This document shows positions 56,399 through 58,897 of a stretch of DNA of 64,000 nucleotides, piece after piece. Every line of letters begins with the position of its first letter. Positions within the stretch are counted from its first letter, which is position 1. Under the pieces are notes generated by a model. It was not told where the DNA came from and did no database searches. It was given only the letters and a program-made list of their open reading frames with translations. The DNA comes from a virus (Duplodnaviria > Caudoviricetes). The stretch is from IMG/VR virus record IMGVR_UViG_3300025689_000001, positions 58,746 through 122,745 of that record. One strand, given 5' to 3'. The translations under genes and the position numbers were made by a program.

Positions 56399-56480
<82 letters not shown>

Positions 56481-56696
56481 ATATACATGGTGGAGCCGTA
56501 CGCTCTCCTATCGCTACCACTATAGCGTCTTAACTACTTTTACGTATAAGTTTGAATATCTACGCCAGCACTCTTCACTGGAGTCAACCACTCTTAACGT
56601 CAATTGGCACCCCGCTCTTTTGTTCAGTTCCAAGAGTAGAACACAAGTTTAGCCTATATCAAACTTGCCAAAAGGTTCGCCTTGTACTTTGGCGTC

Positions 56697-56876
56697 TGGT
56701 GTGGAATAAGGGAATCGAACCCTCGTCCCCTGCATTGGTGCTTCATACAAGTAATGAACTCATATCTTTTGCCATTCTTCATCTGAATATTTCTTTATTT
56801 CAGTTCGAACCGCAAATGTCTTACATTAGACGAATGAGGCGGCAAGCAGGAATCCTAACCGCTGAACGAATTCCAC
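56697..56876 (-). tRNA. trnG: tRNA-Gly(GCC) interrupted by a 105-nt tRNA-shaped intron (56736-56840)
   Basis: Exons join as CCTGC-TTGCC|AT-GCAGG; acceptor GTGGAAT/ATTCCAC; T arm GAGGG-TTCGATT-CCCTT; CCA. Confidence 0.8.
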
Positions 56877-56924
56877 ATTATTGAGGTTTTTGCCGAATGC
56901 TCAGGGATAAACCTCTTAACCCTT

Positions 56925-57009
56925 TGGCGATGACGACGGGACTCGAACCCGCATATAGCTTTCGCTCCGGAGAGACAGTCCGGTGCCTGACCAATTAGGC
57001 TACGCCACC
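56925..57009 (-). tRNA. trnD: tRNA-Asp(GUC) with a long variable arm
   Basis: CCGGA-CTGTCTC-TCCGG; variable arm AGC-GAAA-GCT; G73-CCA. Confidence 0.85.
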
Positions 57010-57151
57010 ATTAAAATCGGTTTACTTTGCTTCTTTATTTTTTTACGAGGCGTTTTCCACAAAGCCACATACCAGATGGTGCTGGTGAACTTAATCACTA
57101 ACCTTTCTGTCGGTGGTAGTTTAACCGCAAAATCCATGTTAACCCCTCAAA

Positions 57152-57238
57152 TGGTCGGCATGGTGGGACTCGAACCCACACGTCCCGAAGGACACTAGCT
57201 CCTTAGGCTAGCGCGTCTGCCAATTCCGCCACACGCCG
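57152..57238 (-). tRNA. trnL: tRNA-Leu(AAG)
   Basis: CTAGC-CTAAGGA-GCTAG; long variable arm; A73-CCA. Confidence 0.9.
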
Positions 57239-57304
57239 ATAAACTCAAGACGGGAAATACATTACCAAAAAATGTTTTGTTATGATTTGCTGAACCGTCT
57301 TTAC

Positions 57305-57381
57305 TGGTGGAGGCGATGGGAATCGAACCCACAACCTCATGCGTGACAGGCATGCGTTCTAACCAACTGAACTACGCTACC
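57305..57381 (-). tRNA. trnD: tRNA-Asp(GUC), two acceptor-stem mismatches
   Basis: CATGC-CTGTCAC-GCATG; CCA. Confidence 0.8.
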
Positions 57382-57455
57382 ATTTCAAGGCTACTTATTT
57401 TAACGAGTAGTTGCCTTAACAAACTCGGTTCTTTTAATGAGGTTATCTCCTCTAT

Positions 57456-57721
57456 TGGCTGGAACGGAGGGACTCGAACCCACGACCTGACGGTTATGGC
57501 ATCAAATGTCAGGATTGAACTGACGATATCCTTGCTCATAAAGCCTTTCATGCTCCTCTGCGTGACAATTTGAACACAACAGGATACATTTATCAACCTC
57601 TTTCTTTAACGAAGAAATATTTTTTGATAAACATCCACAGATTTCACAGGTCTTCATTTTAAATATCACTTCCACAAGTATCTGATACAGCCGCCTGCTC
57701 TACCAGCTGAGCTACGAACCA
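57456..57721 (-). tRNA. trnN: tRNA-Asn(GUU) interrupted by a 190-nt tRNA-shaped intron (57497-57686)
   Basis: Exons join as GGCGG-CTGT|TAA-CCGTC; G73-CCA. Confidence 0.8.
57502..57657 (-). pseudogene. Internally deleted HNH endonuclease (51 aa) inside the tRNA-Asn intron
   Basis: MKTCEICG...KEVDKCILLCSNCHAEEH; the central HNH segment is missing. Confidence 0.7.
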
Positions 57722-58142
57722 ATCTGTTGTACTTTTTAAGTAACTTTCTTTTGTCTTAACTCTAAAATAATTATATCATAAATTTTAGAAAATGTCAACT
57801 TTTCAATTCTCTAAAATTTTTGAAATCGAAAGGAATCCGGTGGAGTTTACAAGCGGTGCCACCGGTCACCAGTTATTTTAGAAAGGAAGAGCAGTTTACG
57901 AAACGACTTACTCGGGTCGAGAAGATTTCTTTTTTTTCTTTTCCTCATTTTCTATAATAATTATACTATAAATTTTAGATTTTGTCAAGATTTCTTTTCT
58001 CTAAAATTTATTTATAGAAGCGTCCCTCCAAAGGAGTGATTTGTTTATTTGTGGGATTTCTGACACTGAACCTAACGCCATTATTGTAGAAAGGAGTTCC
58101 TGCACTTTTCTTCGCCGCCGTGCAGGTAGCGGAAGTAATTAT

Positions 58143-58897
58143 TGGTTGCGGGGGAAGGATTTGAACCAACGACCTCCAGCTTCATATTCTTCTTTAGTTG
58201 TCAAACATTTTTTCAAACGTATACTCGGTTAAGTTTTAGGGTGATAAAGAAAAGGTCTTAGAACTATTAGAGAAAGAAAACAAGGAAATTGTTCGCCGCC
58301 TTGTCAATTCTGGTTTAACTTATAAAGAAGCCTCTTGCGGCATTGGACAGTGGAAGTTTGAGTACGAGGCTGAGACTTTTATTCAAACTGCTCCTAAACA
58401 TTATTCTTACTGCGTTAATGGTCTTGAATAAGATTACAGTTTGATTTAGTTCCATATTTTGGAAGCTCAGTCCTAAAAATTTTACTTTGAGATTTCTCAA
58501 TCATTTCTACTGGAATGAAAACCGCTTTGTCTTCAATAAAAGTAATAATGAAATCAATTTCATCTTTAGTATAAAATTTTCGTACATTTCCATTAGCTTT
58601 CATAGCTGTATTAGAAGTGTTTACTGTATAACTTCCATTATCATTTTTGTGGGCACTTTTACATTGAATTCTTACAATCTTTTTACCAGTATCAACTAAA
58701 AGGTCATATCTTCCTACATTTCCATAAGGGATTGAACATAAATAACCTTTATTAGTAAAATACAAAAGACTTCTTAATTCAGTAGAAATTCCTTTTTGAA
58801 TTTGTTCACTTAATAAATTTGACATTTTACATCACCTCTCGGTGATAACTAACATTGAATATGAGGCTGGCGAGCTACCAGACTGCTCTACCCCGCA
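58143..58897 (-). tRNA. trnM: tRNA-Met(CAU), initiator-like D arm, interrupted by a ~678-nt intron (58183-58860)
   Basis: TGCGGGGTAGAGCAGTCTGGTAGCTCGCCAGCCTCAT | AAGCTGGAGGTCGTTGGTTCAAATCC...CCCCGCAACCA. Confidence 0.8.
58415..58825 (-). CDS. Intron-encoded PD-(D/E)XK endonuclease (I-Ssp6803I-like); C-terminus displaced by an insertion
   Basis: KG...E, P.G...RYDLLVD, RIQCKS, YTKDEIDF. Confidence 0.85.
   Translation of the reverse strand: MSNLLSEQIQKGISTELRSLLYFTNKGYLCSIPYGNVGRYDLLVDTGKKIVRIQCKSAHKNDNGSYTVNTSNTAMKANGNVRKFYTKDEIDFIITFIEDKAVFIPVEMIEKSQSKIFRTELPKYGTKSNCNLIQDH

Follow-up and report, generated by a model that had tools for sequence, protein, structure and literature searches.

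We examined a tRNA cluster of a tailed phage (Duplodnaviria; Caudoviricetes) in IMG/VR record IMGVR_UViG_3300025689_000001, in which two tRNA genes are interrupted by inserts that are themselves tRNA-shaped. The record is linear, 122,745 bp long and rated ~75% complete; the whole stretch of DNA analyzed, referred to below as the window, is its right-hand 64 kb (64,000 nucleotides, positions 58,746 to 122,745). The cluster lies on the minus strand and runs from 56.3 kb of the window to the end of the record, which stops within the cluster. The phage is TAG-recoded, and CUA suppressor tRNAs are encoded by the record. The interrupted genes are tRNA-Gly(GCC) and tRNA-Asn(GUU) (Table 1), which are the only Gly(GCC) gene and the only Asn gene of the record. 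In its intron mode, ARAGORN shifted the borders of both inserts and miscalled the genes as Cys(gca) and Tyr(gta). Asn or Glu genes elsewhere were called His, Thr or Val, and we dropped these intron calls as a guide to borders and identity. A 437-nt 'tRNA-Trp intron' called in a syntenic relative (locus L001) proved to be two separate tRNAs.

Table 1. Features of the two interrupted tRNA genes and their surroundings (window coordinates)
Feature	Position	Strand	Remarks
tRNA-Gly(GCC), whole gene	56876..56697	minus	RF00005 match 56700-56876, 39.9 bits
tRNA-Gly(GCC) 5' exon, positions 1-36, ending ...CCTGC-TTGCC	56841..56876	minus	agrees with intron-less Gly(GCC), L001 7889-7963
Gly insert, 105 nt, 34% G+C, between C36 and A37	56736..56840	minus	joint 56735>56841 in three runs including one DNA contig
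tRNA-Gly(GCC) 3' exon, A37 through encoded CCA	56697..56735	minus	
tRNA-Asn(GUU), whole gene	57721..57456	minus	
tRNA-Asn(GUU) 5' exon, positions 1-35, ending ...GGCGG-CTGT	57687..57721	minus	D arm, T arm (odd U-U pair 50-64) and discriminator G73 shared with Asn(GTT) of L001
Asn insert, 190 nt, between U35 and U36, HNH-bearing mimic	57497..57686	minus	joint 57496>57687 in runs X20 and X21
Inner acceptor 5' strand ATCAGAT; mimic +1 is insert base 1	57680..57686	minus	7/7 pairs with 57507..57501
Inner T arm GTCAG-TTCAATC-CTGAC, acceptor 3' strand ATTTGAT, discriminator G, CCA	57497..57524	minus	encodes HNH C-terminus QFNPDI-stop
Remnant HNH ORF, 51 codons from ATG 57657 (57-aa ORF overall)	57502..57657	minus	phrog_2255 HNH endonuclease
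tRNA-Asn(GUU) 3' exon, U36 through encoded CCA	57456..57496	minus	acceptor tandem U-U at 4-69 and 5-68
Sigma-70-type promoter, perfect: TTGACA, 17 nt, TG-TATAAT	57770..57798	minus	12/12 matches; ~49 nt upstream of tRNA-Asn +1

Each insert runs from an inner acceptor +1 to an inner CCA, as the initial annotation had proposed and as we now confirm to the base. The Gly insert reads GCCTCAT-TC-GTCT AATGTA AGAC-A-TTTGC[39 nt]GCAAA-AGAT-ATGAG TTCATTA CTTGT-ATGAAGC-A-CCA. Its fold comprises an acceptor of 6/7 bp (one C-A mismatch), a 4-bp D-like stem and a 5-bp stem closing a 39-nt loop that stands in place of an anticodon loop, followed by a T-like arm (ATGAG-TTCATTA-CTTGT) and A-CCA. Taken alone, the insert matched the tRNA model RF00005 with 30.6 bits (gathering score 29) over model positions 1–71, with CCA directly after the discriminator. 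It has no ORF. A second intron nested in the 39-nt loop was ruled out, as no cut gives a loop with U33. The ends of the Asn insert form a fully paired 7-bp acceptor helix adjoining a canonical T arm, with G-CCA as the last bases of the insert; its mimic is a minihelix (acceptor/T arm) around an mRNA. From base composition, the chance of meeting an acceptor, a T arm and CCA at these fixed positions is ~1e-8 per insert. Removing the inserts restores 7-nt anticodon loops, TTGCCAT for Gly and CTGTTAA for Asn, and both are the loops of the corresponding intron-less genes of L001. For both precursors a nested double cloverleaf lies no more than about 5 kcal/mol above the minimum free energy. Judged by sequence, both inserts carry the predicted features of an RNase P/RNase Z substrate, namely a coaxial 7-bp acceptor and 5-bp T stem, a T loop, a discriminator and a 3' CCA.

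We next compared alleles with and without the inserts. In the syntenic relative L001, both genes, Gly(GCC) and Asn(GTT), are uninterrupted and show the same idiosyncratic D and T arms as those of the window. We also compared the window with assembled sequence from one DNA run and three RNA libraries (contigs only, so that uncovered stretches carry no evidence). We observed joints at 56735>56841, which skips 105 nt, and at 57496>57687, which skips 190 nt, in both cases with no positional ambiguity. The Gly insert was absent to the base from a 17-kb pig-gut DNA contig with flanks closely matching the window. Contigs of two RNA libraries lacked the Asn insert, which occurred in a long form in the pig-gut DNA contig. 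Carrier and non-carrier phages are ~95–99% identical. One contig without both inserts is 2.2 kb long, spans several tRNAs together with unprocessed spacers, and has two further, non-intron deletions relative to the window. This combination is impossible for an RNase P-processed molecule, indicating that the contig represents a DNA-level allele.

The tRNA likeness of the inserts also raises the question of whether the inner RNA is what the locus really makes, such as a decoy against tRNA-targeting defense nucleases or a regulatory tRNA-like RNA, with the outer gene as no more than a landing pad that supplies promoter and processing. Though accepted by the tRNA covariance model, the Gly insert has a 39-nt loop and so cannot decode, and the tRNA clusters of such phages hold other structured RNAs, including the ROOL RNAs of L001 and L003. 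We consider this reading very improbable, since the Asn mimic is only a minihelix wrapping an mRNA, the mimics are AT-rich and unrelated in sequence, and near-identical phages do without them. The ROOL RNAs (RF03087, 280 and 331 bits) lie within the clusters of two related phages, beside interrupted tRNAs (L001 8137-8729 and L003 629-1223); none was found in the window between 54 and 64 kb.

The Asn insert carries what is left of an HNH endonuclease gene. The TGA stop of the ORF lies within the 3' strand of the inner acceptor, and the inner T arm codes for the conserved C-terminus of the HNH subfamily (for P0001–P0017, from Logan/ENA, the T-arm codons were judged from protein C-termini). The remnant joins an N-terminal CxxC to a C-terminal CSNCHAEEH part and lacks the EFHH catalytic segment, which is invariant in 21/21 aligned HNH homologues. 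It gave no Pfam hit (PF01844 tested) and only partial PHROG HNH matches, and its His-Asn-His motif is not intact. Its last 43 residues are 98% identical to P0001, an 81-aa HNH protein; full-length relatives have ~135–150 aa and an N-terminal CxxC finger. The same Asn insert with ~235 extra letters at 57634/57635 was found in a pig-gut DNA contig (X5) and in RNA-library contigs (X19), indicating that the window insert suffered an internal deletion of ~235 nt in which EFHH was lost. The ends of the mimic are intact despite the deletion of the endonuclease core. The earlier description of a deleted HNH ORF with its stop in the mimic acceptor is borne out.

The same HNH family recurs beside tRNA-Asn. 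A same-strand tRNA-Asn(GTT) lies next to the HNH ORF in 32/71 IMG/VR loci, 34/73 metagenome loci and 74/80 bacterial-genome loci, and members of the family occur free-standing beside tRNA-Asn, in group I introns and in the ribozyme-less mimic. On the strength of these sequence contexts, we classify the family as a predicted tRNA-Asn-associated homing-type endonuclease. Near-identical phages either carry the inserts or lack them precisely, and the HNH family is of homing type; the inserts are therefore mobile, in agreement with the link to homing endonucleases suggested at the outset. We conclude that the inserts are a real, mobile and ribozyme-less intron type.

Several further arrangements of the HNH family were observed. 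In Solirubrobacterales and other Actinomycetota, an HNH homologue lies ~60 nt upstream of the chromosomal tRNA-Asn(GTT) as a conserved pair in dozens of genomes (L180–L258; e.g., L184 701-1028). In many phages, the HNH gene directly follows a tRNA of 86–90 nt whose anticodon is GUU (Asn) and whose variable arm is long and class II-like (L006 1036-1124, L013 422-507, L024 1010-1097, L044 826-913, L045 1008-1094 and L080 1059-1147); such an arm is unusual for tRNA-Asn, and these tRNAs may be cleavage-resistant variants. In L086, a free-standing HNH gene is closely preceded by a stray tRNA 5' half (acceptor and D arm, ~470-520) and followed by an intact tRNA-Asn, an arrangement that resembles the footprint of an endonuclease-driven rearrangement. 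Two tRNAs of the Candidate Phyla Radiation (CPR; Moraniibacteriota and Azambacteria), tRNA-Thr and tRNA-Asp, contain group I introns with this HNH family (L211 521-1160, L231 516-1156), and a Saccharibacteria contig ends in a tRNA-Asn 5' half broken after CTGT (L179 ~1000-1089). Our scan of bacterial-genome contigs returned the chromosomal HNH/tRNA-Asn pairs and the CPR group I introns and no further mimic.

We then tested the inserts against known intron and ribozyme classes. Rfam searches of the window between 54 and 64 kb gave no match to group I introns, group II introns or small ribozymes at E<=1. For either insert alone, there was no match to group I (RF00028) or to small ribozymes at E<=10, and the group II models gave nothing beyond a chance match of 10.4 bits, to a D1-D4 model (E 4.2). 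As a positive control, RF00028 detected group I cores with 50–72 bits in tRNA inserts carrying the same HNH family (L111, L116, L211 and L231). A group I intron is ruled out by the lack of an RF00028 core and by the lengths of 105 and 190 nt, as compared to the usual >200 nt; moreover, both inserts end in A (of CCA) rather than G, and the 5' exon of Gly ends in C36, leaving only that of Asn to end in U. Group II is ruled out by a size that is far too small and by the lack of a domain V-type match. The expectation that neither insert has room for a group I or II core was thus confirmed. Hammerhead, HDV and twister ribozymes were rejected, as none had an Rfam match, and homologous inserts at L084 and L002, described below, gave no ribozyme match in Rfam either. 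By inspection, no bulge-helix-bulge could be drawn at the junctions of the window, L084 or L002 inserts; a candidate GGC/GCC pairing is not kept in L084. EndA (PF01974) had no match in the 122.7-kb record, which is ~75% complete. Elsewhere, a phage tRNA is followed directly by an HDV-like ribozyme match (RF02682, 34.3 bits, under the gathering score; L018 2987-3055), and minimal HDV-type ribozymes have reportedly been seen downstream of phage tRNAs.

Homologues and analogues of the Asn insert allowed us to ask whether the mimic is maintained. A metagenome locus (L084) has a diverged, perfectly paired tRNA-Asn interrupted, likewise at 35|36, by a homologous full-length, TAG-recoded HNH insert of 433 nt. 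This insert begins GTCAGAT and ends ATTTGAC-C-CCA, with T arm and CCA retained. The inner pair 1-72 is A-U in the window and G-C in L084, a compensatory change. L002 (identical in sequence to L082 and L083) has a 436-nt element between positions 31 and 32 in which the inner helix is retained via two one-sided changes, and L112 has a 76-nt, ORF-less insert with a T arm at 35|36. An exact-pattern scan of IMG/VR with the window form of the Asn mimic gave no match, and a degenerate pattern matched only the L002 contig. For the Gly insert, no homologue was found by exact-pattern scans of IMG/VR or by short-word BLAST of all collected loci. For the Asn mimic, the covariance comparison that the initial annotation had called for gave one compensatory pair, in a helix kept together with its T arm among homologues. 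Both the intron-less alleles (L001 and public-run contigs) and the full-length HNH versions (L084 and X5) that it had asked for were found.

A third insert of the same build, unrelated in sequence, lies in the complete 184-kb phage genome G001 (locus L003). It is 49 nt long, interrupts tRNA-Asn at 34|35 directly behind a free-standing HNH gene, and runs from +1 to ACCA (CTG|GTTGGAT...ATCCAGC-A-CCA|TTAA). The interrupted gene is the sole Asn gene among the 31 tRNAs of G001, which has a second minihelix insert of 44 nt likewise ending in ACCA. The borders thus coincide with the inner +1 and CCA to the base in three sequence-unrelated inserts at three sites: 36|37 (Gly), 35|36 (Asn) and 34|35 (Asn of L003). 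The inner 3' tail also tracks the style of the phage's own tRNAs: CCA is present on both tRNAs and mimic in the phages of the window, L084 and L003, and on neither in the L002 phage; L002 and L112 both come from phages without encoded CCA. In a different arrangement (L029 1185-1770, also L025 and L042), tRNA-Ile(UAU) is split after U33 by a 512-nt insert in which a tRNA-like gene (RF00005 29.1 bits, 1232-1309) that has a UAU-type loop of its own precedes an HNH ORF. This insert may represent a cassette in which the endonuclease comes with a tRNA to replace the split one.

We propose the following route for the removal of the inserts. The inner acceptor/T-arm helix of the precursor would be recognized as a pre-tRNA. 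RNase P would cut at the inner +1, so that the 5' exon ends in a 3'-OH, at C36 for Gly and at U35 for Asn, and an endonuclease of the RNase Z/BN type would cut right after the inner CCA, leaving a 5'-phosphate on the 3' exon. The outer cloverleaf would keep the exon halves together, with a nick in the anticodon loop bounded by 3'-OH and 5'-phosphate, and a phage RNA ligase of the T4 Rnl1 type would seal it with no need for healing. By the end chemistry of RNase P, RNase Z and Rnl1, 3'-OH and 5'-phosphate are the ends that a T4 Rnl1-type ligase seals without prior healing. The Asn insert would spread, or once have spread, by means of an HNH endonuclease of the tRNA-Asn-targeting family; as the insert would split the target of that endonuclease, we propose that a carrier would also be protected. 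In the window phage, the endonuclease gene would later have been cut to a stub with the ends of the mimic retained, and the Gly insert would be an ORF-less member of the same kind. Of this route, the two cleavages, the rejoining and a ligase in the window phage are inferred. Mobile, ribozyme-less tRNA-mimic introns, excised by RNase P and a 3'-end nuclease and resealed by an RNA ligase, are the best fit to the data, and we rate the chances of this account as even. Counting in its favor are the base-exact borders, the kept inner helix of L084 and L002, the CCA style of the inner tails, the lack of a ribozyme, the mobility with its HNH link, the survival of the mimic ends, the RNA ligases of G001 and G002 (see below), the sole-copy status of the interrupted genes, the promoter upstream of tRNA-Asn and the nested fold close to the energy minimum. 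The fuller version, a third tRNA-splicing route besides group I self-splicing and the bulge-helix-bulge, in which RNase P and RNase Z/BN-type cuts at a tRNA-mimic intron are followed by phage Rnl1-type sealing and coupled to HNH-linked spread and immunity, is a plausible proposal that we stop just short of favoring.

The search for a ligase, which the initial annotation had suggested, had a mixed outcome. In the record, the ligase and kinase search returned an ATP-dependent DNA ligase and a sub-threshold AAA_33 match. The lack of an RNA ligase there is uninformative because the record ends within the tRNA cluster. A syntenic relative, G002, is collinear with the record (0.2–57 kb of G002 versus 73.7–122.7 kb of the record, G000) and encodes Rnl1-type and Rnl2-type RNA ligases at 67.8 and 91.5 kb, beyond the counterpart of the record end. 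G001, the phage with two minihelix inserts, also encodes both Rnl1-type and Rnl2-type RNA ligases. RtcB was found in none of the window record, G001 and G002, and RtcB profile matches occurred in 10/14 control genomes, including Bacteroides.

Several observations weigh against excision by tRNA-maturation enzymes and resealing. The record yielded no RtcB, Rnl1, Rnl2, EndA, PNK-type kinase or CCA-adding enzyme. For the nuclease cutting exactly after CCA, an enzyme of the RNase Z/BN type is only a candidate; the RNase Z of many bacteria is blocked by CCA, and 3' trimming by exonucleases would not leave the 3' exon intact. We read the joined forms in the RNA libraries as most likely intron-less alleles at the DNA level, which give no support for splicing, and the 105-nt skip also occurs in the 17-kb DNA contig. 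The T loop of the Gly mimic, TTCATTA, is without A58, the acceptor of this mimic has its C-A mismatch, and its stems are beyond a covariation test because no homologue was found. The exact-border rule is broken by L002, in which a leader of 4 nt (TGAT) precedes the inner helix and only the discriminator A follows at the 3' end, and by L112, which has a helix of 5 bp only and a CAC tail; neither form gives a 7-nt loop under the simple rule. Lastly, the tRNA-like module of L029 lies inside its HNH insert, off the border.

Part of this evidence would suit selfish insertions that are never spliced and simply knock out two dispensable tRNA genes, the tRNA-like module either serving the element, through RNase P/Z release or stabilization of its own RNA or HNH mRNA from the polycistronic tRNA transcript, or being tRNA debris. 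The inserts are recent and polymorphic among ~95–99% identical phages, such that intact exons need not mean selection. DNA alleles account for the joined RNA-library contigs, no ligase is in the record, the loop lengths of L002 and L112 are wrong under the simple model, and the module of L029 sits away from the border. The outer Asn acceptor also has two U-U mismatches; however, tandem U-U is found in other tRNAs of a relative too. Such mismatches recur in the window gene (57460-57466/57715-57721) and in a tca-anticodon tRNA of L001 (8746-9294), and their presence in several phage tRNAs suggests that they are probably tolerated and do not signal decay. Selfish insertion leaves unexplained why exact +1-to-CCA borders restore a 7-nt loop in three unrelated inserts, why the mimic is retained in ORF-less inserts (Gly, L003 and L112), and why the sole tRNA-Asn is interrupted in a complete phage with 31 tRNAs. 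We consider it unlikely.

Splicing by other machinery is a further alternative: a dedicated phage or host endonuclease could read the junction or the mimic and leave cyclic phosphate and 5'-OH ends for RtcB to join, or a small ribozyme of a new kind could act. In its favor, border and inner helix are variably offset in L002 and L112, which suits an enzyme that reads the junction better than it suits RNase P/Z; candidate host phyla commonly have RtcB (the control genomes above); and a general intron-removal activity is hinted at by other tRNAs of the phage, whose ribozyme-less inserts are built differently and carry a PD-(D/E)XK ORF. This account is improbable: the record has no EndA family gene, no bulge-helix-bulge can be drawn at the junctions by inspection, no ribozyme family matches, and the exact +1-to-CCA borders and their correlation with CCA style would be left as coincidence.

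The insert of different build lies in tRNA-Met(CAT) (window 58143-58897, minus strand). It is 678 nt long, has a PD-(D/E)XK endonuclease ORF (58825..58415; PF11645, 72.8 bits) and no group I match, and its ends pair as a plain stem with no tRNA mimic. The window phage thus has two distinct classes of ribozyme-less tRNA insert, and an insert similar to that of tRNA-Met is found at L001 8746-9294. Elsewhere in the cluster, a 217-nt spacer (56480-56696) and a 406-nt block with tRNA-Leu and tRNA-Asp (56952-57357) are missing from relatives in public runs, indicating that the cluster is highly plastic among near-identical phages.

Mobile tRNA-mimic introns can be compared with several known systems. 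Devoto et al. (2019; PMC6784885) described 'enigmatic' introns in the tRNAs of Lak megaphages, one of which 'itself may encode a tRNA', and offered no mechanism. As in the window, these interrupt the anticodon loops of tRNAs in TAG-recoded phages, occur in alleles with and without the intron, and have automatic calls offset from the true border; in the window, too, the anticodon-loop insert is itself tRNA- or minihelix-like, and alleles differ by exactly the insert. By contrast, that paper has no mechanism, +1-to-CCA rule, endonuclease link or ligase link, the Lak phage genome is 540 kb as compared to ~160 kb for the window phage, and the inserts are unrelated in sequence. The initial suggestion of a new intron class thus stands as regards a ribozyme-less type, and falls as regards a wholly new kind. 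An open-access literature search found no paper on the mechanism and, on the phenomenon, only this brief Lak remark (PMC6784885).

Mobile group I introns with homing endonuclease genes are found in the anticodon loops of bacterial and phage tRNAs (reviewed in PMC3984707). They share with the window inserts the anticodon-loop site, an HNH homing endonuclease ORF, presence or absence in relatives, and decay of the endonuclease after fixation. The window inserts differ in having no catalytic core, in ending in A, and in ends that form an acceptor/T-arm helix rather than P1 to P10. Archaeal and eukaryal protein-spliced introns (bulge-helix-bulge, EndA, RtcB or Trl1) are likewise ribozyme-less anticodon-loop introns that need protein for cutting and rejoining. 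However, the window has no bulge-helix-bulge or EndA, the sites are 34|35 to 36|37 as compared to the canonical 37|38, and the predicted ends are 3'-OH and 5'-phosphate rather than cyclic phosphate and 5'-OH.

The sealing step has a parallel in phage T4, where an anticodon-loop cut by PrrC is healed by Pnkp and sealed by Rnl1. In both cases an anticodon-loop nick is, or would be, resealed by an Rnl1-type ligase, and Rnl1-type genes are present in G001 and G002. The T4 nick, however, is a host attack that needs end healing, whereas the window nick would be self-inflicted and need none, and no Rnl1 was found in the record. The proposed cuts resemble those of mitochondrial tRNA punctuation and MALAT1 mascRNA, in which tRNA-like signals are cut by RNase P and RNase Z. 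There, as proposed for the window, a tRNA-shaped element in a longer transcript directs cuts at both of its ends; the flanks in those systems are not rejoined, whereas the window route would need rejoining to give a working tRNA.

The proposed design could be tested with two in-vitro transcripts and three purified enzymes. If it is true, bacteria and their viruses would have a protein-dependent form of tRNA splicing built from housekeeping tRNA-maturation enzymes and an RNA ligase, and phage Rnl1 and Rnl2 would have a routine job beyond the repair of anticodon-nuclease damage. It would also provide an explanation for the 'enigmatic' introns of Lak megaphages, and would show a ribozyme-free way for a homing endonuclease to colonize a tRNA gene. 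For annotation, standard tRNA finders miss such genes or misassign their anticodons (Cys and Tyr for Gly and Asn here), and this skews the tRNA repertoires and genetic-code predictions of recoded phages.

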